Shown: positions 23,662-64,000 of the stretch, piece after piece
Numbering within the stretch: the stretch's first letter is position 1
Layout of the letters: each line of letters opens with the position of its first letter
From: Dipteris shenzhenensis
Taxonomy: Eukaryota
Length of the DNA: 64,000 nucleotides
Direction: 5' to 3' (one strand)
Assembly: GCA_047967505.1 (NCBI GenBank)
Contig: CM106538.1
Program-made: the position numbers and the translations under genes
Notes under the pieces: generated by a model
Told to the model about the DNA's origin: nothing
The model's database searches: none
What the model saw: only the letters and a program-made list of their open reading frames with translations

Positions 23662-23832
23662 TGTGGGGGTTAAAGGTCACTGTGCCTTAACCCCAGTTAT
23701 GTACAATACTCAAACACATATATAAATGAATGAAAAAGAAGATTAGGGTGGTTCTGCACCCACCAAAACTTGTGTGGCTCTCTGTCTCTCTCTCTCCTTC
23801 TTCCATTCTTGCTTCCGTTGAGAGCACTCTCA
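23662..23832 (+). repeat. 5' LTR of copia B
   Basis: TGTGGGGG...CTCTCA with internal TATATAAA; identical to 29390-29560. Confidence 0.97.
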
Positions 23833-29336: not shown

Positions 29337-29389
29337 TATGCTCACTGGTTGTTCTCCCTTAAAGGCACATTGTCCTTTAAGTGGGAGGT

Positions 29390-29560
29390 TGTGGGGGTTA
29401 AAGGTCACTGTGCCTTAACCCCAGTTATGTACAATACTCAAACACATATATAAATGAATGAAAAAGAAGATTAGGGTGGTTCTGCACCCACCAAAACTTG
29501 TGTGGCTCTCTGTCTCTCTCTCTCCTTCTTCCATTCTTGCTTCCGTTGAGAGCACTCTCA
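29390..29560 (+). repeat. 3' LTR of copia B
   Basis: Follows the PPT, is followed by TSD TAAGA, and is identical to the 5' LTR. Confidence 0.97.
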
Positions 29561-37800: not shown

Positions 37801-40800
37801 AATTTCAAAATCAGAGAAACTCAAATGCGGTACATAACCCAAATGGCATAAGAGTTTCATTCCATTATGGCTCATGTGCCCCAACCTGCAATGCCATAAA
37901 GAAGTGCTTGGCTGCTCGGTTATTGCAACAACATGATCAAATACCCCTGATACATGTAAGGGATACAAAGTCCCACACTTGGCACCGCTGGCCAAAAGCA
38001 TAGAGCCCTTCTGAATTTTCCAACTCTGAAAGCCAAAAGTGGTGTGAAAACTAGCATCATCTAGCTGACCCACTAAAATAAGACTCTTGGTCAACTTAGG
38101 CACATGTCTCACATGTTTCAAAATAAATGCAGACCCATTTGTAAAAGAAAACTTTATGTCACCTACTCCCACTATGTCACATGCATAGTCATTTCCAAGA
38201 TGCACACAACCTGTCTTTCCACTGTCATAAGTGGAGAACCATTCCCTATGGGGAGTAACATGGAATGAAGCACCAGAATCCAAAATCCAATCCTGGGAAT
38301 ATGCATCATCTGAAGTGGTAAGCAACTCTGCAGATAAACTAGACATGAAGAGAACGTCATTGTCACTATCATGTGTGACTGCATTGATCTCCTCGATCTT
38401 CACTTTTCCTTTGTCCTCCCTTGGACTCTCTTCGTTTTGATTTGCACCCCAATTTGCATTCTTTTTCTTATCCTTTTGCTCTCTTTTCAGCTTGTAGCAA
38501 TCCTTTTTCATATGGCCCTTCTTGCCACAGTGGTAACACTCAATGTTCCGTGCACTGGATTTGCTACGAGACTTCCCTCTTTCTTGGGACTTCCCCCTGA
38601 ACTGTGATCTGCCCCTTTGCACATTTAAGGCTACATCCTGCTTGCTGCCATCCATAGACTTCCGTCTAATCTCCTCGGCCAACAAGCTACCCATAACATC
38701 ATCAAATTTCAGTACTCCACCAGGTGCGGAGTTACTGACAGCTATACGGAAGGTATCCCATGAGGATGGCAATGAACATAACAGAAATATTGCCTTAGTC
38801 TCCGCATCAAAATTCATCTTCTGAGCCTGAAGCTGGCTGAAAATAATATTGAATTCATTCAAGTGAGAAGCAATGGAGACCCCTTCCTTCATCTGCAGCT
38901 CAAACAACCTCTTCATGAGGTAAACTTTATTAGAGGCAGTTTCCCTTTCATAAGTGGCACACAGTTTCTTCCACAAATCTTCCGTAGTCTGCTCATTTAC
39001 CACTGTGAAATAAACTAACTTTGCAAGATGAAGTCTAATAGTAGATTTTGCTAATGCATCCAACTCATTCCAATCATCCTTAAACATATTTGTAGGCTTA
39101 GCTTCAATCCCTGCCAAGGGTTTAATCTGCTTCTTTTGAATAAGCACATCCCTTATTTGTTCTTTCCACAAAGAAAAGTTTGTCCCATCAAACTTTTTAA
39201 TGCTGAAAAACTCCTTTTCAGACATGGAAGAGGATGCCATGATGCAAATAAAGCAAAATCCCAAATGCTAGTGCCTATAAGAGAGAATCACACCAAATAC
39301 CAGGTGCACCCAAATGTGTATGCCACAATAGAGTGAAATATCACCAAAACTCAAAGCTCAAAGCATCAAAAGATGCATCTGACTCATGTGCATATACTAT
39401 GCATCCATATGAGCAAATCTGGCCCAAAAGAAAATGCCAACTGCAATGGCAATCCAAAATGCCAATAAGTGCCAAATGACTCAAGCATAAACACCGTCCA
39501 CTGGCATATGCTTTAATAATATCTTATCCAAGAGAGCATAGCACTATCAGTGCATCACCTGCAATGTGTCAAAGCTGTCCCTCAGCATAAAATAGCATCC
39601 ATGTGCAAAGCGTCCATAAAATTAGCATCCCACAAGGCAATTTGGGCCTATCAGCGCATCCAATAAGGACCGCAATGCATCCAAATGGCCTATAAATCAT
39701 CCACTGCAACCCAATGCACACCACGAATGAGCGCACACTGCTCAAACTGTAACCAGACTGATCTGCATAAGGTATGCTCAAGAAATCATAGTCCCACGGT
39801 AATGACCACTACTGAAAATAGAACATGAGATGCCTCAAAACATGGGTGCCATTGCGTAATCGGACTCAGCAAGAAAATCTGCAAATATCTCTCTTCTGCC
39901 AGAACTCCAAAATCCCAACCGATCAGTGAGAAATGGGTGTCAACACTTATCCACTGCCATGTGGCATAAATTTAAGGTTTCAAAACCTTAGACTGAAAAA
40001 TGCATAACAGAGAGACGAAATCGAATACACAGAGATCTATAACTCTAAAAATCCTCCACCGAATCGTGCAAGAACTGACAGGTAGGGGTTTTTGGGCGTC
40101 TGGAACGCAATGGGACAGACGGTTTTGGAAACCGTGGTCTCAATCACTGGGTCCAACACACAGACTGAAAAACGTTTTTGGAAACAGAGCTATTTGTAAA
40201 CTCCATCGGAGTGTGAATGATGAGCAACATAGAAGTTTTAGGACCTTCTAAGTCCATCGGAAGTGACAGATTTGCAAATGGTTGCTCCAAACTTGAGTTC
40301 CAACACCCGGGCAAAAAACGCGGAAACTGACACAGTGAGTCAGAAATCCAATGAAATGATCCCAGATTCAAGAATGAAGGTGTTTCCAAGCTCCTAAAGT
40401 GAAGTGGATACCAAAAGCAAGCAATAGTTGCCTCTACAAGTCAATACGGAGTCTCTGTCATCGAACGGAACAGGGAAAAGCTCAAAAAAATGACTTTTTC
40501 TTTGAAAACACTTAACAGGCTCTCAAAACCACTTCGCAAAACCAAAGTGACTTTTCTAAAGGTTCCTCCAAGGTCTCTACACACTCGGATGCAAGTAAAG
40601 TCACCCACAAAGCTTCCCACAGAGCTTCTCCTTCCTCCCATAGAGCTGCAGAGCTTCAAACATTCACGCATACTCAGCTAGATCACCCGGGCTCTGATAC
40701 TAGTTGAGAGTGCTCTCAACGGAAGCAAGAACGGAAGAGGGAGAGAGAGAAACAGAGAGCCACACAAGTTTTGGTGGGTGCAGAACACCCTAATCTTCTT

Positions 40801-41514
40801 TTTCATTCATTTATATATGTGTTTGAGTATTGTACATAACCGGGGTAAAGGCACACTGACCTTTAACCCCCACATGCATGTGAGGCTATATGGCTCAGAA
40901 GGCTATTGTTAGAAACAGATTACTTTGATGAATCAAAGCCAACAACAATAGACCGTGATAATCAATTGGCTCAAGCATTGGCCAAGAATCTAGTATATCA
41001 CTCTAGTACAAAGCACATTGATATCAGAGAGCACTTCATCAGAGAAAGAGTATTACTTGATGACATCACACTGCAACATTGTGATAGCAAAGAAAATGTT
41101 GTAGACATCTTGACCAAACCACTCGGTAAAGAGCTTTTCAAGAAGCACTGACAAGCTCTTGGTTTGATGCAGAGGAAGGACATTCTCATTAAAGGGGTGT
41201 GAAGGAATGTAATGCTCAGTCCTTCTTCGATTCCCCAAAATCATCATCTTGAGGGAAGGCCTACTTCATGATGTTGATCTTGAGGGAAGGTGTTGAGAAA
41301 CCATCTCAACATCATGTGATCATATGTGCATAACATTAAAACATAGAGAGTGCTATAAAGAAAAGGGCTAGATGCCCTAACCCTAAAAGGGTTTGTATAT
41401 ATTCTACAATTTCAACTAAATCTAGTGTACAGTTAGTCGTTTGTGGTGTGCTCTCTAGCTGTGCCCTCTCTGCTCATCTCCACTCTTCTCCTCTCCCCTC
41501 TTCATATTTTATCA
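31810..41514 (+). mobile_element. Old degenerate copia C (5' end lost), interrupted in RNaseH by copia D; 3' LTR ~41291-41514
   Basis: RGRGR linker; CHKFGHYERDYC knuckle; WYIDNGASSHMT; CEACYFSKQKR; KKSLYGLKQAPRSWY. RNaseH is split as STEAEYRALTTGA|CEAIWLRRLL across the D insertion, then VDILTKPL. PPT GAGGGAAGG is followed by TGTTGAG...TATCA. Confidence 0.9.
34975..40874 (-). mobile_element. Full-length copia D (same family as B, inverted), pseudogenised, nested in copia C
   Basis: LTRs 40705-40874 (170 bp) and 34975-35132 (158 bp; 12-bp deletion plus 1 substitution); TSD TGCAT on both sides; PBS mutated to TAGTATCAGAGC. gag-pol fragments 39264-37684, 37573-37391 and 37384-35186 are near-identical to B but carry stops and a frameshift. 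Confidence 0.97.
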
Positions 41515-43520: not shown

Positions 43521-44397
43521 ATGTACCGTTCTGGAACATAAACAACTATTTATGTCCACCTTCGAGGCAACACGCATGAAGCCTGAAAAGTCTGACGGGA
43601 ATGCATGTAATATTTTGGGTCCACGAGCTTATTATGTTCTCTGTTCCTACGTCTTGAGTCGCAGCATACGTTCTTGTTCTTAAGACTGAGCTTTTTGTTT
43701 GTTTTCTAAGACGTTTTTGGTTGCAAGAGCCTTTAATTTCCGTTTAATGTCTTTCGAAGAGCGGTTCCATTTTTTTAAAATGTTGCAACGATTGATCTTA
43801 CACATGTAAAGCTCTATCTTGGCTCGTCACGGGTGCTTACAGTGAAGTTATATTACATTGGGCCCATGCAAGATGTACACATAGATATTTGCAGGATTTC
43901 GAGAGTGCATGTACATGTATTATGGGCCAAGGAAGCTGACTTGAGTTCACTATTGACAGATGTCCTCGAAAAACCAAAGTTGGTCTATGGGACAGATAAG
44001 GTAGTCAATACATCGAAAGACCAAAGTTGGTCTATGGGACAGATAAGGTAGTCAATACATCAATCCCCATGATGAGTGTGTGAAGCATGTCCAAAATTAT
44101 CTCACAATGATTGCATTAAGCACCTCCGCAAGCATACCTACTTATTGGGGTCAAAGCAACATGGAATAATACTAAGGTACATTTGCTTACGACTAAGGCT
44201 CTTTAGGTTTAGGCGTGAAGTCTTTGATAAATGCTCTCCCATCGCTAAAGACTGCCCAGTGAGTTCCACGGCTTGAGAGAGAGAGAGAGAGAGAGAGACG
44301 CTTTCTATGTCACAACACATAGCAAGCGCTACCTCTCTCCTACTAGCTATTGAAAGTGGCAGCGTGCCACATGTCACCACGCGAGATGCACCGGGTT

Positions 44398-45848
44398 TGT
44401 GAGGTCCCACTCCCCGCCCCATAGCTGCGTACATAGCCTCCTCACCTCCCCAAAAGGTCCAGGGGACATCCCAGATGTAGCAGACAGGTGTGATGGGTCT
44501 TCCATTCCTCAGGCCTTTCCATCAGCTACAATCAATTCCTTCCCTTGGTGTGGGCTGAAGTTCGGTCGATTCATTGGAGGTGTACTCAACCGTTAGGTCC
44601 CTCTCTCCATTCCTCCGAGAGGCATCCTCAGATTTAGATAGTTATTCATTCTTTCGAGGAGCATCTATTCCTTCCATCTTTCAGGTCTTTCGCATTTGAG
44701 GTGTTCTCAGCAGTTACAAACATCTCACCGGCCCTACAGGCAGGAAGCGTCCTCTTCAATCCATTCATTAGAGGAATGCTTATCAGTCCCTACCATCTCT
44801 CAGTCCCATTGGGACACAACTACAGTTTTAGCAGCTCCCGGCATCACTTAGGTTCTTAGGGAGGCATTTACATCCATAGGTCCAGATTCTAAGAGGGTGA
44901 TGGGGCTTTGACACTAAACAATTATGACTGCAATAGAGGAGGTAGGTGTATACCAGCTTTCTCTCACAGTAGTCATGCAGACAAATTACCTTAGTTTTCA
45001 GGAGTGCATGTGAGTATTCTGGAGTTTCTGGGCTTTAAGTTTTGGTTGCCTAGCCCAAGTGGTTTTGTCATCACCCCAGCAGTTCATGGAGTATCACCAG
45101 CAGTTCTATGTGAGTGGTTCTTCTGCAGTGGGGAGGGTGCATGCCAGCACTTGGTAACCAATATCATACCATTAGCCTTCCAGAGCTCAATGCCTTTGCG
45201 TCAGCATCCCAGTCAGTTCTCAGCAGTTGACGAGGACAGCCTTCACTTCATATTTCCAAGAGCCTATCAGAGCAGTTGACAGTAGGAGCATGGTAGGATG
45301 ATTGGCCATAGCAGTTCGGCTTCCAATCTTTGCTCGTACCGGTTCTCAGGAGTTTTTATTGAGCTGCCGTGTTACCATATTAGAGCATTCGTTCCTCAGC
45401 CTTTTGGAGCAGTGCCAGCTCAGTCCCAGTGCCAGACTATTATTCCCCATTTCTTTGGGAGGACAGTTAAGTTTCGAGCAGCAGTTGGGGTCAGCTCCCT
45501 CCCTTTGCCGCGCCAACAATCCAGCTCCAGAGGCAGACATACAGCAGCCCCTACAGATAGCGATTGAAGGCAGCATGCACACGCAGCATACAGCAGGGTT
45601 TGGGCAGCTACCAAGGTCGGGGTTTGGCAGTTTGTTTCAACAGCATAGCGCCATCTCCCACAGTCGCAGCTAGGGGAGTTATGTCAGCTCAGTTTAGCAC
45701 TCATTTACAGAGTATTGGTCAGGGCATCAATGCCAGCATCATAAATAAACCAGTGTATAATAGTTAGGAAGATCTCTTGTGCTCTTTCATGCTTGAGTGC
45801 TCCTTCTTTATTTATCTATTTCTGAACAGCATGTCCCAGCATGTTACA
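44398..45848. mobile_element. Possible solo-LTR-like fragment
   Basis: Begins TGTGAG and ends GTTACA; non-coding, with AATAAA-like and T-rich 3' part. No matching TSD (GGGTT vs CAAGC). Confidence 0.3.
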
Positions 45849-48800
45849 CAAGCAAAGGTGTAACAAGGAGGACAGTGCAGTAACTTACATGTACAATGGG
45901 CAATGGAGCCCATGAGCAAGCGTACAGGACTTCAAGCCCCACTCATGAGGAAGTATTGGGATCCACAGGCATAGGGGTACCAAGGCCAATAGCATTTTTG
46001 AATGGAAGTATAGTGGTTTCCTCAACGCTGAGGACAAGCAAAGGTGCAACAAGGTGGACAGTGCAGTAACTTCATGGGATGCTGCATGTTACTTCAGGAC
46101 GATGGGCAATGGAACCCTTGGTATGTGCTTACATTCAGAAGCTGCATTTAAAACTTTCAGCACCCCTTTGTCGCCCAGGGAAAAGGCAATTATGAAGTTT
46201 GCAAACAAGGGCATATTCCTTTCAAATAATTCTAGATCTTTCAAAAACGAGCAACATATCCAAGGATCAGGACTATTTCCTAACAAAACCACCTGTTCCA
46301 AATCATACTCGTCTGAAATTGGACTAAAGGCCCTAGCTAAGTCATGTGCAACATAGAGATCTTCCATGTTGTACGGCTATATATTTTGGGTCTCATTAGG
46401 ATCTCCCATTCTAGATGCTGCTTCATACTTCTTTGCTGCTTGCCTGAACTGATTTGTCTTAGTCCATTTTATTTCATGGGGGAATGCCTGTGTTTCAATG
46501 GGGCTGCTCCTTGACAACACTGCAGCATTGGGTGGTGCGTTTAGAGGGGGTGCTATCTAGCTTGAATTTTCCCGTCCACTAATTGATATGACACTCCGGT
46601 GTTCCCCTTTCCTAACCTTCATCTTCACTTTTGTGGACGTTCATTGCATGTGACCTTGGTAGGCTTTTGAGAGTGGTACTATGTGTTGGTTGTGACACTT
46701 CCAGGCTGTTCATATGGACATGTGTTTGGATGTTGTTGGCCATTGGGCTTCATGTGGAGACTTGTATGCATGTTGAGGTCCCTTGTCTGTGTAACTTGTG
46801 GTATGTTCAATTCGGATGCGATTCACTATTGTTGTTCAGCGTCTTTGAAGTTTGCATGCTGCTCATTGTCAAATTTGTCATGTGTGCATTATACCTATTG
46901 TTGTGCACACACTCATTCACATTGAGCCTGAGGGAGATAAAGACAATATTGATATATCTCAAAATATTTGTGTTAATGCATAGATTTCTATATGTTGATA
47001 CATTAGACAAACTTAATAATTTGATAGATTTGCATAATAATGCTTCTCCCCGCTCATAATTGGGCATAATCTATAATTTTCTTCATAGAATTTCTAGATT
47101 AATAACTTTCAGGTCTTCTCTAATGCTCTATGCATGATGATTAAATGTAATTTGTGTCATTTATGTCTCCTCATGATCTCTTTCACGTCAAATGATGTAA
47201 GCCTAAACGTGATGATCATTCTATGCTAGATAAGTTGCAAATTTCTTTAGGCCTCAACCTCAACTACTACTATGATACATGTTACCTAGTAACATTATTC
47301 CATCAATACTAGGTAATAATGTGCACAAATGAGAATAAAATAATAATACTTTATTTTGAAATTAAAATTGAGACTTCTTAATATTATTGTGAATCAATTT
47401 TTGACAAATAAAGTGTACAAAAAACAACTATAGATATATTTATGTTTGATAAGTTTTAAAGTATTAATGTATATGGTATTTCCAAAAGAAGTATAAAATG
47501 TCCACCATTGGTCATTAATTGCTTCAACGTTTTGGTATAATCCTTGGAAGATCTTTGAAATTTGGGTAACCAACCAAAAATGAGAGAAGGTGTTCCTTCA
47601 ACTTTTGTACTATAGAAATGCATCATCTTTCATCAAGATCAAGATCAACAGGATCACTAGACAAGGAATTGGATGATCCATCCTCCTCCTCATAGTTAAT
47701 GCGAACATCTCTTTATTACTATGCAAACTGGTAGATCTTAATGCATGCAATAGGAATTTTGTGTGATAGTGTGAGTTCATGTGATATGAATACACTCCTT
47801 CAATCCTGTAATGACAATAAACCTTAACTTGAATAGAACTTGTATAAACCCAAAGAAACCCAAGCAATATAAGACCAAAGACAACTTGATTGTCTCAAGC
47901 TTCAATACAATTATCTAGGATTGGCATACGACATGCAAATCACCTTTAGAAAGGGTTTTTATTGGTTATAAAGCTTTTGACTTGACTATGGACCCTATCT
48001 ACTACAAGGCAAGCTTGCTCTTACTCAAAAAGACAACATAGACCAAGTGATTATTGCAAGAGACTACTCTCATGGATGATGCTTTCAAGAAGACCTCAAA
48101 ACCATTGTGGTATAGACGGTAAAAAATAGATGCTTGTAGGAGTCGTCGTCATACGGATGGAGTGCTACTCTTGAACAACACGTCAGTGCTCCCCATGCAA
48201 CTTACGCTTGTCTTCTCATGCATAGGATGGACCAATCAAAGACAATCATATGTTCACATCAAAGAGCCAATTGTGTGCCATTTGCTCAAGTCAATAAGGT
48301 GATAATCAACTGGGTTTTTCAATTGCTACAAAACCTTTGAACCAAGATGCTCCCCCATGCTAGTTTCAGCTAATACCCCCATTGAAACAAGTCGGGGGCA
48401 TCCAAACTCCGAACCAGAGACATTACCATTAGCAATAAAAAAGTTTTAAGCTTAACAAACAACCTCACTAATAACCAAAGCCATCACAAATGATTGCATG
48501 CTTACTAAGTGCCTAAGCAACCTTGAAACACACTACCCAAGATAACAAGCCAACAAAACATTTTATTTTGCAAAAACTATGATTTCCTTGGTTGGAGGAT
48601 CTTCAACTGCAAATATTTCTTCTTTGAGGTCTTCATTTTCTCATCTCTTTGTTTCTTATAAGAGAACCTTTCTATGTGCCCATCTTTGTTGTGATAATGA
48701 CATGTTCAAACACCTCTACATTTGGTGGTTGTACTTCATTTTTTCTATTTTACAAACATATGTAGGTTCTTGGATTGGCAACAAATGTTTGAAGTGTTTC

Positions 48801-49615
48801 TCCCCACTTAGCAACATAGACACATCTAGGATGTCAATTTCATTATCCGTTCGTAATATAGTGAAAATCTCAAAATACCAAGGAGGCAAGCTCACTAGTA
48901 TAGTCTTAGCATCATCTTTATCTACTTTTGAGATGACAACATTCAACTACTTTAGAAGTGCTTGCATATGATTGAGATACGTACTAAGGATTTCGTTTTC
49001 TTTCATTTGAAGACCAACCAACTTGTTTTAAACTAGCTTTAGAATGCTTCATCCTAACACAAGACAAAGACTCAAGAATTATGCAATTCTCTATAGCAAA
49101 CTTCATGACGATGAGGTGGTGAAACATTAGGAAAAAAGGGAGCTCATTTTGGGGCCTTTTACGGTTTGGAAAAATAAGCTCTCAACCAATCAATAGAAGG
49201 CCAACGTAACGTTGAAAATTCACGAAAATAAGAGAAAATAGAAAAAAGAAACAATACTTTATGTAAGTACAAGCGTGCTACATTAATGTGGAGATTGGTT
49301 TTTTATTCTCAGAAGATCTTTGGACAAGAAGATAGAATCTAAACTGACATTTTATCTGACAAGATCCTTCCCGCTTCCACCTTCCTTTGAACTTTCAAAT
49401 GTTGTGCCACCTTTCGTGCGAAAGGTCTACCATTCTACACCATTGCCTCATTGTGCAACAGCCTTTCTTTTCGAAAACTGCTCCCTTGATCCTGTTTGGC
49501 GTAGAGTAAGATGTTTCTCGTCAACTGTCTGTCTGCCCACTTTCTCTTTCTTGAAACTTCAAATTGTTATCTTAGTTACATTAATTTGCTATTGTTACAG
49601 ATTCAGAAAATCTCC

Positions 49616-51056
49616 ATGGTGAACCAAAACCACGGCCGTTCTTGTGGAAGACGCTCTGTGGATGATAATGCTACGAAGGCAGAATTATACCAAACATCCT
49701 TACCCCGTCGACCTGCTTCTTCTATTTCGTCCGGTAGAGAATTCAAGTACAGTCAAAACGGAAGGAACTTGGGAAAGGTTTAGTGTTTCGAAAGGAGCAT
49801 GGGTGCTCATGCAACCTAGCAAAAGAAAAAGACCCCAGACAAAAAACATTTTCTTGGCATCGTGGAAGGGAAGAGTACGAGATTTTAAAATCACCAAAGG
49901 GAAGATATCCGTGAAAGAAGTTTTGATTCAGCACGTGTACATGCATAAAGAACTTGTCTTGCGAGACTATCCAAAAAATCTTCCGCAACACAGGCCTAAT
50001 TGTATATTTTTCTATTGTGGTTTTTTTCTTCATGAGGTGTATGGATTTTTAAGATAAAGCTTTCTCTCTTAGCTTATTGACATTCTTGTGTTGTTTTATT
50101 TCAGATTTATATCCTTCATCGTATGAGACATGGCAAAACATCGATTGTATTCTGGGATTTATAGATGTTCTGCATGGATCGATAGGAGAACAATAATACC
50201 AAGGTCGATGTGCAACAGAGCTAGCTCAATCGGGTATATTTTTTACTGATCATTTTTATTAGTTGCTGGACAAAGCTAACACACATGGTGTATTAATAAA
50301 ACAAGACCTTCCGGCGTGGAATTCAGTGGATTGGCCTCACCCACATTCTAGTGTTACAGAGGCATATAGGGCGAAGCTTTTTACAGAAGTACAGAAAGCT
50401 CTGAGGCCCAATATTGCCACTAGGATAGTAAAAATTTCTTTGTGCATGCCTCTCACAGTTTTTGTGGACTTGTTTAATACCTTTCCCGTGAAGGTTTCAA
50501 AAACAATGTTCACAGTTAAAGCAACAAATTCGGCATGCATGCCACAATTTTTGGATAAAGGTTGGGATAAGAAGACATGTAGTTCAGTGTTTTGTGAGGT
50601 GGTCCAACCTTCTATGCAACTGAAGTATATGGTTGCATCACAAAATTTTATTTTCTCTTTTTATTACAAGCGCAGTCGAATGCTAGGCACAAAGCTTGTC
50701 CCAATGGATCAAGATGAAGAGTCTTTTGGTGCAGAAAATAAACTTATTGATATTGATGTTGTTGAGAATGGTGATGTGCTAGTCAATATCTCATTAAGAG
50801 AATGTTGCTCCCTAGCTCAATTGCACAGTGACATTCTGTTTGAGACTGAAGGTTCTATCTCAAACAACTTTTTATTTATCTACAACAACAGAAAGGTACA
50901 CCATCTGATTTATCCTAGTCTCATTAAGCATTGCTATTAGTTTAATTTACCACTCTAATTCATATTCCTTTTTTGCAGTTACTCAAAAGAAGAGAGAGCT
51001 CAATAAAATGCAAAGACATAGAAAATTTAAAAATTGAGATAACACAGACTCCATAA
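49616..51056 (+). pseudogene. BAH-like domain plus C-terminal ubiquitin-like (beta-grasp) protein. Exons ~49616-50001, 50105-50895, 50979-51056 (start uncertain)
   Basis: Spliced reading FSVSKGAWVLMQP..WKGRVRDF..VLIQHVYMHKEL..HRPNYLYPSSYETWQNIDCILGFIDVLH..IFFTDHFY follows the BAH pattern. C-terminal SLAQLHSDIL..FLFIYNNRKLL..IKCKDIENLKIEI is UBL-like. Introns are phase-compatible; in-frame stops at 50194 (TAA) and 50260 (TAG). Confidence 0.6.
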
Positions 51057-51172
51057 ACAAAGGTTTTGTATTCAATCAAGTAAGATTTTGTACAGAACTA
51101 TTTAGCTGAATCTGTAGAACATATTTCTGACATCCATTTTCTATTTATGTACAGCTTGATCCAGAGGCTGCT

Positions 51173-53232
51173 CTACATTTTCTGGAGGATCTTCTCTCTG
51201 CTGCTCCATCCTGTCTCCTCCACTGTCCCAGAAGCCTCTCTTTGCTGCTTCTCCACCTTCTCCTCAACATCAGCAGCAGGTCTTTGCTCCTGTGTCTGCT
51301 CCTCCTCAGCACTCTGTGATTGCTCCTGTGGCTTCTGGTCCTCAGCATTAGGTGCTTCATTTGTGGGATCAAGGTGTATGACACCTTCTTGTACTTTAGA
51401 GCTTTCACCCAGCTCCACAGTAGCTGGTACAATAGGTTTGGGGGAGGGGGGAGGCATAGCTCAAAAACCTCCAAATTGTATGAGCTCTAAAATTATGTAC
51501 ATAGTTGGAGCTGAAGCTATCCTCTTTCATCTGCAATGGCAGAGGATAATTTAGAACACTTTGTATTATTATGAATTATCTTCAAGCTAAATGAAAAGTA
51601 TTTTTCCTTACCAGGTTTGGCTGTTCCTTCTCAAAGTAGCTTGAAAGTATATATTTTGCATTGATCAGCACCCTCCATCCACAGCTACTTGAATCATTTT
51701 GTTGTGGTGTCTGTACAGTTAGAAAGATATGTTAGAAACTGTTAGCATCAGCACAAAACAAAATTATTCAATAAGTTCAAAGACATAGCATTTAATAGGC
51801 TTTTTACCTCTAGACTTATTGGCTCTATTGAATCCAAAAGAGAGACATTTGGAGGACAGTGATCCAATGCATCTAAAAGCCTTCTAATACAACTGCAATA
51901 TGTATAATTTAGTTAGTATGATATCAAAATAATGAAGTTTTAAGTTCAAAAAGCACACACAGCACTTACAATTTCAGCTCTTTGTGTGTGTTTTTTAGAC
52001 AGTTGAATAGAAAGCATTGCTTCTACTGGATGTCAATAGACACAAAACTCCAGTGGTCACTGCATAAGGAAAAAAGCATAAGAAAATGAAAGGCTACAAG
52101 AGTTCCCAATATTAAAGAAGAATCTTAAAAGAAGTAGTCACCCACATACCTGCTATGGTATGGAAGTAGCAAAACATCAATTACTTCAAAATTGCAGTGT
52201 TTGAACCAGCTGGAAATACTCATGGGAGTCTCCTTTGCATCTCTTAATTTAGAAGAAATGGCTGGATCAACAATATGGACTGTATGCTATACATAGGGGT
52301 GAAGCCAGCTTCTCATCATGCTGCATAGGATCAGAAAATAATTAGGGTAGGTTATAAAGGAGTTACAAGGAGGATTGATTTGCAAAAAATGTAAAATTTA
52401 TAGACACTTACTAGAGCATTGCAAGAATGATAGTATATGAGTAATACTCATTCTTATGAGCCAATGCTGCTAAGCATTGTTTTGTCAAATCAAAATCATT
52501 CACTGAAACTTCATCCTCAATATGAACAACTACATCAGGGCCCAGCTCCTTCAACCTTCTATGTATCTGTAGCTCCTTCTTTCCAGTCTCCACATCTATA
52601 ACAGATTTTGTTTCTTTTATTTGCTGCTTCAGTGAGTCCTCATAAGCAGCCTTCCCTCTGGTGTTCTTTGAGTGTGTTACCTCAACAACCTTTACCTCAT
52701 CAACCTTCAACTTCCTTGTGGGTGGAATTAGCAATATGTCTCTCATTTTGATGTCCTGCCATTCCACAGGATGAACAAGCTTGTCATACCTCCATCTCAC
52801 TCTAGACAAAGTGTTGAAGTCTTTGGCCATCAAAGTCACCCTATGAGCATGCGCTGCTACAAGCATTGCATCTTCAAAATATTTCTCCAAGTAATCCTCT
52901 GCCATTTCCTGTAAGGAAAGAATGGCAGTTCTATTCCACCTGAACCCAAGGTTCCAACTGTCACAAATTTCTCTCACCAGTCTTTGAAAGGGTGCTTTGG
53001 GTATTGCAAAGCCTATAGCTTTCTGTTGCCTCCTGATCTCCCTTAGCACACCTGCACCCTGATTCAATCTTTTGGCCTTTTGCTTGAGCAAGCTCATTGG
53101 CTTACCCTTCCTGCCATGTGCAGCTCTTCCCTTTGGAGGCACACTAAATTTCTTGGTACCTGCCCCAGCTGCTGTTGCTGCAAGCCCTAGTCCTTTGCCA
53201 ACTTTCCTTGCAGTTGACTTGGTTCTTGCCAT
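51173..53232 (-). pseudogene. Histone H3-like histone fold fused to an Ulp1/SENP (C48) protease-like domain. Exons 53232-52412, 52320-52150, 52059-51970, 51892-51808, 51710-51612, 51530-~51173
   Basis: MARTKSTARK tail; fold VLREIRRQQK..IPKAPFQRLVREI..LQEMAEDYL..FEDAMLVAAHAHRVTLMAKDF. After five phase-compatible GT-AG introns: VHIVDP..WFK..DVLLLPYHSSDHWSFVSIDI..FNCL..PQQNDSSSCGWRVL..NFRAHTI. TAG stops at 52289 and 52025, and a probable frameshift in the last exon. Confidence 0.88.
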
Positions 53233-53318
53233 CACTCTGAAAAACTGCATACAAAGGATTGGAAAGAGATCACAGACATGGAGAACATGTTCTAACAAAG
53301 AAAAGGCAATCACAGAAA

Positions 53319-53590
53319 TTTGCAATAAAATGCGATATGAGCAGTTTGGAATTTCAAACAGGTCCACATCGCATTTTGCTGCAAATTTTTGAAATGACAT
53401 GCTGGTGCACTCCTACATATCACTCCAACTAAATACAGTATGAATGGAGTTTATGCAAGAAGATTACAGCTATGGAAGTCACAAAACCAGAATGACAGGG
53501 GTTGATGAAGCAATATTTCAATATTTGCAACAAAACGCGATTTCAGCAGTTTGAAATTCCTAATGCCTTCTCCTCGCATTTTGCTGCAAA
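53319..53590. repeat. Two diverged copies (205 bp apart) of the 17-bp inverted-repeat motif, in the 5' UTR intron of the H3-Ulp1 gene
   Basis: TTTGCAATAAAATGCGA (53319) / TCGCATTTTGCTGCAAA (53369) and TTTGCAACAAAACGCGA (53524) / TCGCATTTTGCTGCAAA (53574). The intron runs from donor 53874 to acceptor 53237. Confidence 0.85.
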
Positions 53591-54039
53591 TTCATGAGGC
53601 AACATGCTGGAATATGCCTTCAGTCATTTGAAGGTGTTTGCATAACCATACAGGATGGATTGAGTCTATGGAAGTCAAGAAGTGTGCACAGACTGAAGGG
53701 AGAACCCATAAGTACAGTTTCACCCTCACATGCAAATATCACACTTGAAGATCTGCATTCCTAAAGTGATTTCTCTGTCTTGATTTGAGTCTATGCATTT
53801 CTATGCAGGATGTATTTTTTCTATTTTAGGCAAGAAGATTGCAGAGACTAAGGGGAGAACCCATTGTTACTGACCTGGAATCTATCTGTGGATGTGCTGT
53901 GCTGCTGAGGAGTAATCTGTGCTGACGATGAACCTATGCTGCTGGACAGGATGCTGATGCTGCAGAGTATGGAGGTAGGGAGGCAAGAGAGCAGAGACTG
54001 GAGGGCAAGAGGTCTAAAACAGGATACCACAAATAAGTG

Positions 54040-54300
54040 TAAATAGAATTAAAGAATCTCTAAATCCCACACGTGTGGAATGTAGTCGTTTTTCACACAT
54101 GTGGATGGGACCCAGATCTCTTGGAGTTTGAAATTTGGCACGTGTGAAAGTACACTTTATGCCTTGGAACTTGTGCCATTCATGATTTCATCATCAATAC
54201 CACAACCACTTTTCCCTCCCCTGGATCCCAATCTTTCATCCCTGCCACGACCCTCGCATCTTCCATTTCCTTCTCTCTGACCCTTTCCTACCCAGCACAC
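54040..54300. promoter_or_regulatory. Putative bidirectional promoter between the H3-Ulp1 gene and the acidic unknown gene
   Basis: Lies between the divergent first exons; 12-bp palindrome CCACACGTGTGG (54067-54078) and a second G-box CACGTG (54139-54144). Confidence 0.45.
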
Positions 54301-54414
54301 TCCATCCAGACTGCAACCTGCTTGAAGACAGTACTGCCAGATCTCCAGGTTACCTAGAGTGCAAAGTTTAAGCTAGAGAAAGAGCAGGAGATTTACCAGT
54401 GCAACTCCATCAGC

Positions 54415-57270
54415 ATGGAAAAGGAAAAAAAAGGTCAGAATTTTAGATTGGTTTCAATGTTTTTCAACATTTATTTCTTCCATCCATTGGATTTTTGATG
54501 TCCCAATGTCTTCACTCAGCTCCATCCTCCTTCTTACATTTTCAATTTATACTGTTCAAGAATGTGGTAAATCACCCAGAAATTAGATTGTAGGTTGATA
54601 TGAATAGAAACAAGAAATTTGCAACAAAATGCGAGGAGAGTGGTTTATAATTCTCTAAACAGCCCATATCGCATTTTGCTGCAAATTCCTGTTGTTGACA
54701 CCTTCCTCATGAAAAGTTTCACTCATTCCATTATTTCTCTTGCATATGAGATCATAGTGTCCAGGAATCACTGAGATGAACCAATGCTTGATTTGACATG
54801 CACATGAACAGAACTTGAGAATTTGCAACAAAATGCGAGGAGAGTGGTTTATAATTCTCCAAATTGCCCATATCGCATTTTGCTGCAGATTCCTGTTGTT
54901 GACACATTCCTCATGAAAAGTTTCACTCATTCCATTATTTCTCTTGCATATGAGATCATAGTGTCCAGGAATCACTGAGATGAACCAAGTGCTTGATTTG
55001 ACATGCACATGAACAGAACTTGAGAATTTGCAACAAAATGCGAGGAGAGTGGTTTATAATTCTCCAAATTGCCCATATCGCATTTTGCTGCAGATTCCTG
55101 TTGTTGACACATTCCTCATGAAAAGTTTCACTCATTCCATTATTTCTCTTGCATATGAGATCATAGTGTCCAGGAATCACTCAGATGAACCCAGTGCTTG
55201 ATTTGACATGCACATGAACAGAATTTGAGAATTTGCAACAAAATGCGAGGAGAGTGGTTTATAATTCTCTAAACAGCCCATATCGCATTTTGCTGCAAAT
55301 TCCTATGTATGATTTGGTTCTCACTTCTACATCATTAATTTGCTATCTTTAGCCCTGTGGAAATCTTCCTTGATGATGAGAAATGTTTTTGTTTTGGAAC
55401 AACTGGCTCCCAGGCCCCACCTTTCAAGAGGAAGCTGGACTTTTCTGCTGCTATTATTAGACCACAGCAATCACCAGGTGAGTCATGAGATGTCATGAAG
55501 GAATTATCTGGTGATATACAATGCATTCACTGATTGCATATGTCAGCATATAGAATTCATAGTATATAAGTTTTTGAACAGGCAAAAAGAAGAGACTGGA
55601 GCAGAGTGCTGATTCTTCCATTAAAAAACAAATGGAACCAGAAGAGGACAGTTCTCCAGATTTGCTCCTATTTGAGTTTCTTCACAAATGCAAGGCTCAG
55701 AGTAACTTCCATATATACCACAGTATTTTCAACATGGAGTTCACAATGAGCTTTGTACTGGAGTAGCACAAAGACTTTCTTTCAGACTATTGGGATACCT
55801 TCAAAGAACTGACAGAGGCAGGAAGAATTGTGGAAGGAGAAAAGGTTTTTGTGCACATAAATCATATTGTCTCCAATGACAGGCTGAGGTACCATGTGAA
55901 AAGAAGATTTGACAGCCTGCCTGATCACTATAAATTCAACTGTACTTTGCACATCAGAAAGTGCAGAGTGCTGGAGGAGAGCATGGCATTTCTTATGTAC
56001 ATTATCTTCAGTCAGGAGTCTTTGGATGAACAAGGGCAGGAAATAGAAGAAGAAGACACATCTGAAGCAGAGGAAAAGGAGGATGTTTCTTTGGTCACAG
56101 AAATGGCAGAGCAAGAAGAAGATATCAACCTTCAGGATGAGGGGCTGCAAGTGGCTGCTCTTGACCTTGTTCAACTGAGGACAAAAACTCTGAGGGGAGC
56201 AGAGCCAATTGAAGATTTTGATGTTCAGAGCAACAACTATGCAGTGCCCATGCTTCCAGGTGTGTTGATTGGTGGAAAGGATTATGTTTTCCTCCATGAT
56301 ATAGAGTGTATGTTTGATTTGAGGGAGGACTATGCCATTTCCCTTATTGCCCAGGCTTCAAGACTTGACAAGGAGGTTGGCATAGAGGATGACCATTCAC
56401 TACTGGCTTTGGAAACAATGTTTGATCCTGTAGAGGCCCTTTCATTTTGTTTCAAAGAGGCTGAAAAGTTCCAAGAGCCAGATGAAGCTGCCTTCCAGCT
56501 CACACAGGAAGCTATGAATCTCTCAGCACTATACACAGAAAAGCCTAAAGAAGAGGCTGGACAAGAGGGGAGAGGGATAAATCTTTGGAAAGATGAACTG
56601 CTTGTTGTTGATGAAAATGAGAAGGTACTTCAAATCATATACTTTGACTTCTGCTTAACTTTGTTTTTGTAGGTTGTGTATTGTCTCATTCCAATCCTTT
56701 GATATGTGGCAGCTACAAATTGAGGATGACACATTCTTCCAGAGATCAAGTGGAAGCAGGCAGGTTGGGTTTCGCAAAATGTCAGGCCTAGCTCATTATA
56801 TTCATGATCTAGGCAGTGCCAAGATCTTGATTTACCATAGGCAGTTGAGCAACAATGGAGAAGCCATTGTTTACTTCCTAAAATGTTTGTCCAGGGCTTT
56901 AGGAGGACATGTTCTTTCATGGCAAAAGGAAAAGATCATTTTGATAGAGAGGTTGTCTGCCATAGATATATTTGGAGATTATGTGAATAAGCAGGCCTCT
57001 AGGGCCGCTTACTTTTTGTCTTACACTTCTTATGCATTAGCATGTGGTGTTAAGGAGCCCAAATATCTGGAGGGCTATGGAAAACACCAGCTCGTAAGGT
57101 TTCGAGAGCCACCCATGATTGCATCAGGCCACACAGTCCAAGAAGAGGAACAGGTGGAGAGAGCTGAAGAAAAGGATAAAGAGACAGTCGACATCAAGCC
57201 AATAAAGAAAAAAAAGACTCCAATCAAGATCAAAAAGAGAGTTCCGATCGGCAGGCCCTGGGAGAAATAG
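54415..57270 (+). pseudogene. Spliced acidic protein of unknown function. Exons ~54415-54433, 55353-55477, 55582-56624, 56673-57270
   Basis: Long coding-like frames (280 and 198 aa) with Glu-rich tracts and a basic C-terminal NLS-like IKKKKTPIKIKKR. Exons 2-3 join in phase; TAG at 55764; the first and last junctions are off by one base. Confidence 0.6.
54615..55304. repeat. Tandem array of a ~205-bp unit (3.4 copies), each with a 17-bp inverted repeat
   Basis: TTTGCAACAAAATGCGA starts at 54618, 54822, 55027 and 55232. Each is followed ~34 bp later by TCGCATTTTGCTGCA(A/G)A. Confidence 0.97.
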
Positions 57271-57594
57271 GATTTAGTCATCGAATATAGCACAAACATT
57301 ATATTAAATTTGAACTGATTTGTATAAAGTCTTTGATATCTGGTATGATCTTGTATAAATGATTAATAAGTTGATGATGAAATGATTTGTACATTTACAT
57401 AGAGTGGTGTCGTTAAATATTAAATGAACAATATATTGAAATTGTAAACAAATTGTATTAAGTTCAGATCATATGTTTCACAAAAGAAATACTTTTCATG
57501 CATAACACCAAGAGTCACTTGTTCCACTAAAAAAATTTCTATTGAATGAGTTTGAAAACATGTGGACATAACACCAATAAGTTACAAATGAGTC

Positions 57595-58570
57595 CTATTC
57601 ATGTTTACTTGTCCATTTATGGTTTCTAAATATCTTCGATTCCCTCCATTGTCTATGTCTCTCTGCTACAATTGAATTGTCTAGAGCTTGTCTTCGTCTT
57701 TGCTTTTGGGCTAGAAGAAAAGCAAGCTTGATTTTGGAGCTAGCAACTTTTCTTTTAGCATGCAGCCTCTGTAGTATGCCTCGGTAAAACCATTGGAAGA
57801 CTTCCTTTAGACTATTCACCTTCTGACTCCCTCCATAGTGTTGTGTGTGTCTAAAAAATGCATTACGTGCCATGTAGTGAGACTTCTCCATGCCTTGGGT
57901 AGACCAAATAGCTGGGCATCCATACTTTTTGACAAAATAGGGAAGGTGGTTGTATATGATATGCTGTAAGACATAAGAATGCATAGTAAGTAATTAAAAA
58001 AAAGAGGATCACACTTAAGTAAAAGAAAAAGACATAACCTTACCATGTAGTGAGTTATATTGCAGGATGTCCACGCGTCTTTCATTGACTTTCCAAAATG
58101 TTTAATTGCCTCCTCAAAGTTCTTGTAATCACTCTTTGTCCATGTTACTTTGTCACAGAACATGAAGAGTTGATCAAGAGACCTCCACACCTCTGCCTTC
58201 CTATTTCATGCTTCCCCATCTGCCTCATGATCTTTCACAGCATTATGGACTTGCTTCCACAATCCATAATTAATATTTGAAACTGCTCTACCTTGCCTTA
58301 CTTGCTTACTGTGTTTGGGTCGAGACAAGAATCTTCTTGCCTTAACACCACCAATAGAGGGCTTGATTGGTACCTCCTTGCCATTGGTAGACTTTTTAAA
58401 ATCCTTTATGATTTGAACATCTCCTCCATGCAAACCTATATCCGATAACACTTTTTCCAATGCTTGAAGAGCATCCTTTCTATTTTTTTCGGGACGGAGT
58501 TTCCAAGCAAATCCAATATATAAAAATACCAATTTCTCAATAATTCGACATAGACCATGCAATGTGCAGC
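57595..58570 (-). pseudogene. C-terminal half of a RAG1/Transib(CMC)-like DDE transposase; intron 58043-57964
   Basis: CTLHGLCRIIEKL (CxxH motif), then spliced ITHYM|HIIYNHLPYFVKKYGCPAIWSTQGMEKSH (TxYxHxxxxH zinc ligands and WxxxGxE catalytic Glu). One in-frame TGA at 58208-58206. The N-terminal DD region is replaced by unrelated sequence. Confidence 0.75.
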
Positions 58571-60589
58571 TTGAGTCCATCTCTCTCTAGTTCATTCTCT
58601 CTCTATGAATAGTCTTGGAGCTTCCGCTCCCTCTTATACGTTTGAAACCTCTTCTTCTCCCTTGTGTTTGTAGTATTTTGAGTTGCATTGGAGTGGAGTC
58701 TCACTCTATTAGTAATGAAGGTCACTTCAGGTTCTCTCTCTTGAGTGTCGTTTTCCTTTTTCCATTGTTTTCTCTTCCAAAGTGCTCAAAAGTGTTGTCT
58801 ATTCGGCTGCTCATTGCGCATACATGGTTTATCTATTTCCCAAGCCACAAAGGGAGCTCTTCCTTCCCTCCTAGGTAACCTCTATGGGACTTGGATTGTT
58901 GATGAAGTCTAAGCATGGAGGTAGTATTCTCCCAAGTCGGCACCAGTAGAAGGAGTACGTGTTTTTCATGACAGTTTGACCCCCTATCAGTATTTTGCTT
59001 ATAACTTTTTGCTCCATCATCCGATTTGGATAAAACATATATTAGCACAAAGCTCTCTTTAAGGAGCATCATCCTATGTCCTCAGTTATTGTATTAGATT
59101 TCAAACCAAAAATCTATGACTCTCTGTGTGTGACTATTTCTTTTTCAGATAGTTTTTACCCTGTCTAGTAAACTGCCCATATCTTTCCGACTGCTTCTCT
59201 GTTTCTTATGAAACTTATATCACAGCGAAGCCCATTTTAAGATGCATCTGGATATGTGTTTGAATATTTTATATCATGTCTCTGCTGAAAGTTATGGGTC
59301 TCTGTGTCTTATGATAGTTTGGAGAGTGTTTTGAGCTAAGTGTAAAGGTGTCTATGAAGGAGGTGCAATGTTTCCTCAGAACCTACCCATCTGACCCGAT
59401 CAGCCCCTTCAAACTCCTTGATATATATTAGTTCATGTCATGTTGAGCTGCAAGATCTTCTTTCAACAACATTTCACTCTTCTCTTTGGCACAGACCACC
59501 GGCTTGCTAAGATTATGGCCTCCGCTGATCCTTTCCTTCTCCCTATGCTTGAGTACAACATCATTTGGGATGTTACCATCTTCATTCTCCTATAAGGAGG
59601 GATAGTATGGTGTGGTCTCTTGGTATAAAAGCTTCTTTTGAATGTCCCTTTCCCAGTGATGAATATCTCTATCACTCAGTTCGAAAGCAGTAGGAAGTGA
59701 AGAGGTGCGTGAAGTTTATTACCCCCAACTTCATGTCATAGTATGCCAAAATCATTATGATATCTTACATGCAATCTAAAACATTGAAGAAAAATGTCAC
59801 CACAATGCTAAAACTGAAATATTCACTCAAATTTATGTCATATATTTGGCATCACATGTTCTTATTGCCCATGCTTTATGAACCTCATGCAACCAACTGT
59901 CATCCACATATTTATAGTTGGTTCCATAAAAGATATACAAAGCATGCAAATAGTAAGAAAAAAATGAATCAAGATATCTCCCACTAGTGCTTGGGTTCAT
60001 GGCACTTTTGCACATCAGCGAGCATTCTAATTTAATATGACCTGCTCATCTCTTACTTAAAAGTGGACATTTCTTACTTACCACACTTAAGCCTACGTCT
60101 CTCACCGAAACACGACTTGAGGTCCTAAGCTACACGTATACTACAAACGACAACCTTGATATATCTGTAGGTGACAAAAATCCTCGGAACCCTGCATACT
60201 GAGAATACCCTGCTCTTTCCATCACAAAAGCCTGGGACAGAGCCAACACAACATCCGGCCATTCAGGTAAATACCAATCTCGAGTCTTCACAAGCTTTAA
60301 CATGCACCCTAAAGTTCATAGAGTGACGACCCTACCAACACCTCGAGAGATGCACACAAAGTGAAAGCAATGCCCAATCATCCTGGTTCGAGTAGTCTAT
60401 GGGCTTCAACAAAATGCAAGAAAAGGAGAGACAACCTAAGTGCGGAAGCCATTGCAATAGTGGTGACGTTTTGGCATGAAAATACGAGAGTTTTTCCAAA
60501 TAACAAGGACATTTGTAGAAAGTAGACAGGATGCAAGATGTTTGAGGAGCACATCATACACATGCTTGATACAACGCAGAGGTGAGTGG

Positions 60590-61874: not shown

Positions 61875-64000
61875 TGTAAGAAAATAATACATCTATGCTC
61901 AATAGATAACAAGATCTCGTACGCAAGAGAGAAAACAAGATAGTATGGATAATAAAAAATTTGATTACTGTAGAACTGATACAATAGATGGCGCTGCCTC
62001 CCAACTGTGCGCTCCTGTGAAAGAAGCTTCGATGGCATGCTGGAAACAGTAGAAGACGGAGGCTGGATGTTAAGGAATCAGGGTTGCTGTAGCCAGTGAT
62101 GAAATGGGCTTCACGGGCTTGCTCTTATATAGCCACCAATCATAGTCGGTTAGGCTCAATTGGGTGATCGACCTAGTCCGCCCAAAACGGTCGACTGGGG
62201 GTCAAAATAGGCCACCGACCATACAATAGAACCGGTGCGCAAAATAGAGCAACTAACCTACGGTTACTGTTCGGCCTAGAGCCAATCTGGGATCTCATCT
62301 GAGGCTCCAAACGGGCCCCACAACCCGAGAGTGGGCTGCCCCGAGAAATGCTCCGTCTACCCTCAGTGCGGTCAGTCAAGGGATGCCTTCCCGCACTTGG
62401 ATGTAGCCTAGTTAGCGGTGTGCCAACTCTATCTGAAGCTGTCTAGCCATCAGGCCACACATGGCCCCCATCTGGTGTCCAAACCAAGACCTACCGGATA
62501 ACCGAGCTCCTCAAATGCCTTCTCCTCATATGGGGGCTTACAAGTAGAGTTAGCTGGTTCCCGCGTAGTTACACGAGAGTGGAGCATTGATATCTAACAC
62601 CCCCCCTCAATGTCCACCCGCAAGTGAACTTACTTTTCCAGCCCAATGCCAAGTCAATGAAGATGCCTCTCCAGTAAGTCTCTTCCAAGAGCCCTACACC
62701 AAGTCGACCTCTCCATCCATGATCGCGTACAAAGTGATATTGAATCTCAATGTGTTTTGTGCGAGTGTGGAACACCGGGTTCTTTGCAATCGCCATGCAA
62801 CTTTGATTGTCACATGATAACTGCGTAGGCTTGTTTTGCACTGCACCCATGTCCCGCAAAATCCTCCTCAACCATACTGCCTCGCAACAAGCAAAGCATG
62901 CATATACTCAGCCTCGGTAGAAGAAAGAGCAACTATGGGTTGCTTCTTGCTAACCCATGACACAGCTCCAAATCCAAGTGAGAAACAGTAAGGTGTCACT
63001 GATCTCTTGCTGTCCACGTCTCCTGCCCAATTCAAGTCACAGAATCCGGTCAAGATGTTGCCCTTGGTATAGGTGATGCCATAATCAAGTGTGCCTTTGA
63101 TGTATTTCAGCACCCGCATCCCTGCCCTCCAATGGTTCTCCCGGGCTCATTGGAAAACCTGCTTAGTACACCAGTCACACAACTGATGTCCGGCAGTGTG
63201 TTGCACAAGTAAATCAAGCTGCCCACAAGCCTTCTGTACTTGGCTTCATCCACCAGTGGTGATGAATCCTCGTTTGAGAGCTTCGCATCAACCTCCATAG
63301 GGGTACCAACTGTCTCGCACTCAGCCATGCCAAATGCCTTCAGTATCTCTCCAGCATACTTCAGCTATGAAATGAAGATCTGTTTCGGCTCCTGCCAAAC
63401 TTCAATCCCCAAACAGAAATGCATCAGTCCAAGGTCTGTCATTTCAAACTCTCTTCCTAGCAAATGCTTCATCTGCGAGATCTTCTCTTCATGGTTCCCT
63501 GTTATGACAAGGTCGTCCACATAAAGGACCATGATCGTACACCTGTCTCCTTCTTTGAAAATATACAAATTTGCATCAGATGGGCTCCTCCTGAACCCAT
63601 TTCACAGAAGTAGGCATCAATTCACTGGTACCACGCTTGTGGAGCCTGTTTCAGCCTGTAAAGTGCCTTCTTCAGTTTGTAGACTTTACCTTCTGAACCG
63701 GGGATCTCAAAACCTGGTGGTTGTTCCATGTATACCTCCTCCTTCACATCTCCATTCAAAAAGGCGGATTTCACATCCATCTGAAACACGGGCCAACTTC
63801 TATGAATTGTGGTTAGTCGAGCTGTGGGAGCAAAAGTATCTTGATAATCAAAACCATGTACCTATGCAAATCCTTTTGCCACGAGCCGAGCCTTGTACTT
63901 ATCCAACGTGCCGTCGGACTTGTACTTGGTCTTGTACACCCACTTGGTTCCTATTACCTTGTGTTTTGGTGGTCGATCCACAAGGTCCCAAGTGTTGTTC
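61875..64000 (-). mobile_element. Degenerate copia E (RT, RNaseH, PPT, 3' LTR 61875-62599), related to copia A; runs off window end
   Basis: [49 protein letters not shown]. The minus strand reads PPT GAGGGGGGG then TGTTAGATATCA. The LTR shares blocks with 3958-4550. Confidence 0.93.

Follow-up and report, generated by a model that had tools for sequence, protein, structure and literature searches.

The target arrays of the VANC proteins belong to the VANDAL transposons of Arabidopsis, which are of the MuDR type (Hosaka et al. 2017, PMC5735166, in its excerpted text). In the same excerpts, VANC21 binds a family-specific motif of 9 nt that has accumulated via tandem repeats, both upstream of VANA21 and inside introns of VANC21 and VANB21, and binding to the motif is accompanied by local CG hypomethylation (PMC5735166). 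Here we describe an internal region of a RAG1/Transib-like DNA transposon from Dipteris shenzhenensis (assembly GCA_047967505.1, contig CM106538.1). The whole stretch of 64,000 nucleotides that we analysed is called the window, and the region of interest holds six palindromic modules in two arrays around a control region between two divergent genes. The En/Spm (CACTA) elements are the second system to which this locus can be compared. Their subterminal repeats consist of multiple direct and inverted copies of a motif bound by TnpA/transposase. A link to regulation by TnpA is given in the abstract of 10.64898/2026.08.24.746577.

The modules are built from a 17-nt arm motif, which has 13 matches in the window when up to three mismatches are allowed. 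Twelve of the 13 form six inverted pairs. By chance 0.64 matches would be expected, and 13 were reached in none of 100 shuffles. Elsewhere in the 64 kb there was no further match with up to two mismatches. Two modules lie on the left: L1 at 53319-53385 (arms 53319-53335 and 53369-53385) and, 205 bp from it, L2 at 53524-53590 (arms 53524-53540 and 53574-53590). Four lie on the right, R1 at 54618-54685, R2 at 54822-54889, R3 at 55027-55094 and R4 at 55232-55299, with spacings of 204, 205 and 205 bp. An earlier reading, made from the sequence alone, had described six inverted-motif units at these spacings, two on the left and four on the right, and our search confirms them. Each module is about 68 bp long. 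The left modules enclose a loop of 33 nt and the right ones a loop of 34 nt; the L1 loop is itself partly palindromic. The inverted half-sites measure 17-20 bp and have their centres 50-51 bp apart, which is about five helical turns. There is an A-run in the middle of each arm.

We suggest that these are selected, protein-binding modules of paired half-sites, multiplied by tandem duplication around a bidirectional promoter, and we hold this as our leading reading with a confidence somewhat short of even. Each module would be a candidate sequence-specific site on double-stranded DNA for a dimeric factor, kept by selection. Tandem duplication of a unit of about 205 bp would have multiplied the sites on both sides of a bidirectional control region, which lies between a histone H3-like gene and a plus-strand gene of a multi-copy RAG1/Transib-like DNA transposon. 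The recruited factor might keep the promoter of the element active or unmethylated, or it might serve self-regulation of the element. The candidate binder could be encoded by the element (the N-terminus of the transposase or the product of the plus-strand gene) or it could be a host protein. We propose a dimeric factor because the half-sites are inverted, the conservation is confined to them, CpG dinucleotides are retained there and the modules flank the control region. The anatomy of the repeats, the conservation of the arms, the retention of CpG, the gene content and the fold of the transposase family are observed; we infer the binding, the kind of binder, the effect on methylation or transcription and the placement in introns.

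The conservation of the arms was compared with that of the loops and the flanks. The arms of L1 and those of L2 each agree with the R1 arms at 33 of 34 positions, and with each other at 32 of 34. The left and the right loops share 19-23 of 35-36 positions, and the 40-nt flanks have about 50-58% identity between the two sides. The background, taken from random 34-mers of this element, is 46 ± 6% and never exceeds 62%. What the two sides share is only a palindromic module of ~70-90 bp; in both orientations the other ~135 bp of each left unit match the right units no better than the null. The sequence-only reading had stated that in the left copies the arms are conserved and their surroundings diverged, and this is borne out by the comparison.

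L1 and L2 align at 77% over 88 nt, which comprise the palindrome and a further 20 nt. The remainders of the two units still align locally, with a score of 30 against a null mean of 14.8 and a maximum of 25 (0/500 shuffles), and L1 and L2 are for this reason old, decayed tandem duplicates. A remnant of a third left unit is found at 53789-53864. It is a copy of the segment 53634-53709 between the palindromes (76 nt, 75%) with no recognisable palindrome, and no arm was found in it even with up to five mismatches. Since the left array is old and decayed, the identity of its arms does not come from recent copying. The arms therefore look preserved by selection, as judged from three semi-independent lineages (L1, L2 and the right array, R) of one dead copy of the element. 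In run X3, the loop letters at 54650 and 54651 are not those of the window in five contigs, and the one at 54659 is not in three. None of the rows listed differs from the window in an arm.

The right array has a different history. At 54616-55304 Tandem Repeats Finder reports a period of 205 bp with 3.4 copies, 97% matches and a score of 1287, and the right units are 97-99% identical across the whole unit. This indicates a recent duplication, which carries no information on selection, and it would suit a neutral structure. In such a scenario a foldback palindrome, or one like a miniature inverted-repeat transposable element (MITE), would have landed or arisen in the element and would have been carried along by tandem duplication, while intrastrand repair or conversion kept its arms alike. 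Transposons often contain tandem repeats in their non-coding DNA. The array structure also differs among the copies of the element, with a joint 54689->54505 in run X5 and loose ends at 53315 (X1) and 53556 (X3). However, hairpin conversion should homogenise the inner palindrome too, and the loops have decayed. The 205-bp spacing and the alignable remainders of L1 and L2 argue for duplication together with the flanks and not for separate insertions. No target-site duplication flanks any of the six modules on inspection of their flanks, and no copy of the module occurs elsewhere in the window, as might be looked for in a MITE or foldback element. Against the neutral scenario, 13 of the 21 CpGs of the region also sit in the arms. 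We consider it doubtful.

The distribution of CpG is the second line of evidence for the binding modules. The 6 kb from 51001 to 57000 contain 21 CpGs, an observed/expected ratio (o/e) of 0.09, with TG at 1.37 and CA at 1.44. Such a pattern is what methylation of cytosines followed by their deamination leaves behind over long periods. The 12 arms, 204 nt in all, contain 13 of the 21 (binomial P about 1e-14, in which the four right units are not independent). When the recent right copies are counted as one, so that L1, L2 and R are the independent observations, the arms still stand out. Another six lie in 53926-54255 and two elsewhere. From the ATG of the H3-like gene to 53728, and again from 54435 to 55353, every CpG sits in an arm. 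L1 has its CpGs at 53333 and 53370, and L2 at 53536, 53538 and 53575. The right array (54616-55304) has eight, the sole CpGs between 54435 and 55353. The six CpGs outside the arms between 53200 and 55450 are at 54072, 54087 and 54141 in a central core and at 53926, 54248 and 54255 in the sequence around it. The depletion is near total over the H3-like and the plus-strand genes (o/e 0.09) and is milder over the transposase remnant at 57001-58570 (o/e 0.23-0.52 per 500 bp). A 225-codon open frame on the plus strand at 50263-50937 has normal CpG content and no family match; it adjoins the CpG-depleted block on its left.

The core itself spans 54068-54147 of the divergent intergenic region, with CACGTG at 54071-54076 and again at 54139-54144, and a CACATG variant between them. 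It lies midway between the arrays: the centres of the inner palindromes are at 53557 and 54651.5, and their midpoint, 54104, is the centre of the core. We infer a promoter role for it. The H3-like gene has its start codon at 53232, and the left array occupies the stretch 87-358 bp upstream of it. A pyrimidine tract followed by CAG can be read in the sequence just before this ATG. It is plausible that the arrays lie in introns.

A period of 205 bp is close to the nucleosome repeat length. The arrays could thus be an element of chromatin architecture, which phases nucleosomes over the control region, possibly with the H3-like protein of the element itself. The start of the H3-like gene and the left array are 87 bp apart, and the spacing of 204-205 bp is equal on both sides although the DNA between the palindromes is unrelated. 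Yet the left side offers a single spacing and the right side three, the constant right period would follow from tandem duplication by itself, and histones do not read sequence. We find an architectural role highly improbable. A combination of the two ideas can be imagined in which the ~205-bp sites load or phase nucleosomes and a factor of the element installs its own H3 variant there, over the bidirectional promoter. This would give a private chromatin resistant to CpG methylation, in an old and widespread RAG1-like lineage, and the arms and the promoter core would for that reason hold the only surviving CpGs. We give this combination little credence and rate it as very unlikely.

We also looked at how the two arrays are oriented. 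According to the sequence-only reading they are mirror images, so that each gene sees its array in the same orientation. The alignment of L1 is better in the direct orientation against R1 and R4 (71-72 direct, 57-61 inverted) and about equal against R2 and R3 (58 direct, 60 inverted). L2, in contrast, aligns better in the inverted orientation against all four right units (57-63 against 48-53). The loops align in either orientation because they are themselves degenerate palindromes; the L1 loop is identical to its own reverse complement at 24 of 34 positions. One contig of run X3, placed at 53556, extends the L2-type loop with letters that look, on visual comparison, like the right loop's complement. 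The arms have a single asymmetric position, with A in the 5' arm and G in the complement of the 3' arm. Its polarity on the plus strand is the same in all six units, which argues for a direct orientation. In a folded transcript the same position gives an A.C mismatch on the plus strand and a G.U pair on the minus strand, again in all six units. The mirror image is only partly supported: the loops lean towards inversion (L2 and the one X3 contig), but the arm asymmetry is direct, L1 leans to direct and ~135 bp of the units are unshared. That both genes see the array in the same orientation is not established. The disagreement between loops and arms would be accounted for if the loop had been inverted while the arms stayed in place.

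The orientation bears on a function at the RNA level, with hairpins in the first introns or the 5' leaders of both genes that serve an RNA-binding factor or act as a source of small RNAs with a fixed sequence. If the loops were inverted between the two sides, each gene would transcribe the same loop sense. Seven of the eight folds by strand and unit beat their shuffles (z -2.7 to -6.5), with stems of 19-23 bp. The exception is the plus strand of L2, with a z of -0.85, where 40 of 200 shuffles fold at least as well. No compensatory changes were seen. All four arm variants are one-sided transitions. Each gives a wobble pair in the fold of one strand and a mismatch in that of its complement, and the transcribed strand is not consistently favoured. 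A search of Rfam returned only sub-threshold matches to generic miRNA hairpins, the best at 30 bits against a gathering score of 90, and any palindrome folds. On balance an RNA-level function seems distinctly unlikely.

Several points weigh against the protein-binding modules that we favour. There are two sites per 205 bp, far sparser than in the VANC motif arrays, and the frames of the element yielded no recognisable DNA-binding domain, VANC-like or other. The selection argument compares only the three lineages named above, which are semi-independent and come from one dead copy. A palindrome with conserved stems is equally expected of an RNA hairpin or of a small mobile foldback. The retention of CpG could also be explained by biased repair in hairpin-forming DNA instead of selection or protection. 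The sequence-only reading had proposed binding sites of a dimeric, VANC-like protein. The dimeric binding gains from the conservation of the arms and from the CpGs retained in them. The element itself is not a VANDAL or Mutator-like element (MULE); its transposase family has a RAG1/Transib-like fold.

The left gene of the pair is an open frame of 273 codons on the minus strand (52414-53232), which encodes a histone H3-like protein (P0001; Pfam Histone PF00125, E 1.2e-26). The protein has an H3-type N-terminus, the histone fold and a long C-terminal extension, and its ATG at 53232 agrees with the MARTK start of three relatives. In total 180 relatives were found at E<=0.001. The best named ones are hypothetical proteins of Adiantum with 45-50% identity, followed by plant CENH3s over the fold. 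The sequence-only reading had spoken of a BAH protein. The minus-strand gene is instead the histone H3-like one, and no BAH domain was found in the 98 frames scanned between 43.8 and 62.4 kb. In the same frames no Pfam family other than Histone reached the cut-off. Downstream of the H3-like frame, an acidic, proline-rich frame on the minus strand contains a 36-bp tandem repeat at 51270-51347 (2.2 copies). This frame may be a further exon of the H3-like gene.

The right gene, on the plus strand at 55578-57267, has no assigned family. It consists of acidic frames at 55578-55763 and 55767-56669, followed by a frame at 56659-57267. Where the relatives have Q or P, the copy in the window is interrupted by an in-frame TAG (55764-55766). 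Four close relatives were found, all of them unnamed. The product gave no Pfam family and no usable Atlas match, and its AlphaFold model was unusable, with a predicted local distance difference test score (pLDDT) of 32.

The transposase lies beyond the plus-strand gene, on the minus strand at 57598-58568. By tblastn this stretch corresponds to the C-terminal half, residues ~351-685, of a relative of 696 residues (P0122), with 49-58% identity. A stop codon interrupts its frame at 58206-58208, a short intron lies near 57990-58040, and the homology stops at 58569/58570. On this evidence the transposase of the window is a truncated pseudogene. Contigs of runs X1, X2 and X5 run past 58569 into one common sequence that is absent from the window. 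At the same place the window goes on with a different repeat, and a contig of X2 begins at 58570. Because the transposase is halved and has an in-frame stop, and the contigs diverge from the window at 58569/58570, we regard this copy of the element as dead and interrupted. The sequence-only reading had spoken of a transposase. The family does have the RAG1/Transib core fold in the model of P0122, but the window holds only the truncated pseudogene.

The family assignment was made with the relative P0122. A representative library contains 447 relatives of the family at E<=0.001. Pfam RAG1 stays below the cut-off, with matches in 3 of 34 members and a best E of 0.0019, and neither phmmer nor a profile search against solved structures returned anything relevant. 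The AlphaFold model of P0122 has a pLDDT of 76, with low confidence in the N-terminal 70 residues. Compared with the RAG1 core (4wwx) it gave a Foldseek E of 6e-11 and a VIA Z of 20.1 (root-mean-square deviation 4.4, 446 residues aligned). Z was 18.7 for HzTransib (6pqn/6pqx) and 18.4 for BbRAGL of amphioxus (6b40); the P element (11.9) and Hermes (8) were well below. The RAG1-type DDE core fold is thus present in the P0122 model, of which the window copy covers only the C-terminal half. P0122 also has CLYC and H-ICTM-H, which are the diagnostic C(2)C and H(3-4)H motifs. In the accessible part of PMC12730594 these motifs are common to EnSpm, Mirage, Chapaev and related lineages, which are without a solved structure. 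As these lineages share the motifs and lack structures, we use only the label RAG1/Transib-like. The modelled fold says that the family is RAG1/Transib-like, and the motifs do not separate it from EnSpm/Mirage/Chapaev. Cluster look-ups for the family led to Adiantum and to unnamed JGI, ENA and Logan sources. When viral contigs were searched with a single transposase protein, there were six pattern matches and none was confirmed.

With a transposase of this type in the element, the arms could be internal binding sites of the transposase itself. They would then enhance or regulate transposition from within the element, or serve as an operator through which it controls its own promoter, and would not act against silencing. 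The end signals read by RAG1 and Transib transposases are bipartite and include an A-rich element. Each arm has its A-run in the middle, and the family has the RAG1/Transib core fold. Transposases can moreover be sequence-specific transcriptional activators of their cognate copies, a role reported in the accessible part of 10.64898/2026.08.24.746577. On the other hand, there is no other arm-like site in the 64 kb and the ends of the element are outside the window. The N-terminal 70 residues of P0122, a possible DNA-recognition region, are the part of the model with low confidence. We judge transposase-binding sites to be unlikely. The arms were separately considered as ends of miniature transposons and rejected, since a search by eye found no heptamer-like CAC motif at a fixed distance outside the arms.

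Contigs of other sequencing runs place the element in a wider family. Contigs of four runs were compared with 51000-59000; 1073 of run X3 and 5206 of run X5 were placed, and these are spread over all likeness classes. The element is, on this count, a multi-copy, diverged family in at least two organisms. X3 and X5 contigs cover all bins of the arrays at a likeness of at least 85%. Over the bins of the right array X1 and X2 have no cover, and the summed depth of X3 and X5 is at its lowest. As assemblies tend to break at repeats and the depth of a contig does not measure copy number, we conclude nothing from this about abundance or absence. Contig joints to 57467 rest on sides of 21 nt and were not used. 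In metagenomes a degenerate form of the arm motif was found at no fewer than 117 loci. Each of these has one match and none resembles 44001-58570 of the window by blastn, and they were set aside as chance matches.

Other repeats lie further away in the window. At 23640-40875 there are two inverted repeat copies of ~5.7 kb, 94-98% complementary in collinear blocks (I1-I14), with short direct repeats at their ends. They look like two elements of the long terminal repeat type or a large inverted duplication. Polymerase fragments of Copia-type retrotransposons are found at both ends of the window (353-899, 63140-63684 and, on the minus strand, 62569-63998). They are 74-80% alike, as judged from the translated frames.

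Binding-site arrays around a transposon's own promoter would be the visible half of a transposon-versus-silencing system, and such systems have been worked out mainly for the Arabidopsis VANDAL and Spm elements. The likeness to the VANC arrays, as those are described in the excerpts of PMC5735166, is that a motif was multiplied by tandem repeats in the element's own non-coding DNA, here in the 205-bp array and a decayed second array, and that the structure varies between copies. The motifs themselves differ. VANC motifs have 8-9 nt, one orientation and a high density, whereas here inverted pairs of 17-20 nt, 50-51 bp apart, occur once per 205 bp. The VANC system joins a MuDR transposase with a VANC protein; in this element the transposase is RAG1/Transib-like and no VANC-like protein was recognised.

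En/Spm is alike in that a short internal motif, present many times in both direct and inverted orientation, is bound by a regulator which the element encodes. However, the En/Spm repeats adjoin the termini, whereas the arrays of this element are placed around a bidirectional promoter in its interior, and the window has no further copy of the motif. With Transib and RAG-like transposons the element shares the core fold (Z 18-20 over about 440-450 residues), and the similarity in sequence is marginal. Neither internal palindrome arrays nor an H3-like gene were found for Transib in our searches of the open-access literature. These searches also gave no description of a RAG1-like transposon family with a captured or ancestral H3 variant in land plants, and we flag the family for this combination. 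If the modules are indeed binding sites, the logic known from VANDAL and Spm would recur in a RAG1/Transib-like element of a fern-type genome, and this element also carries an H3-like gene.

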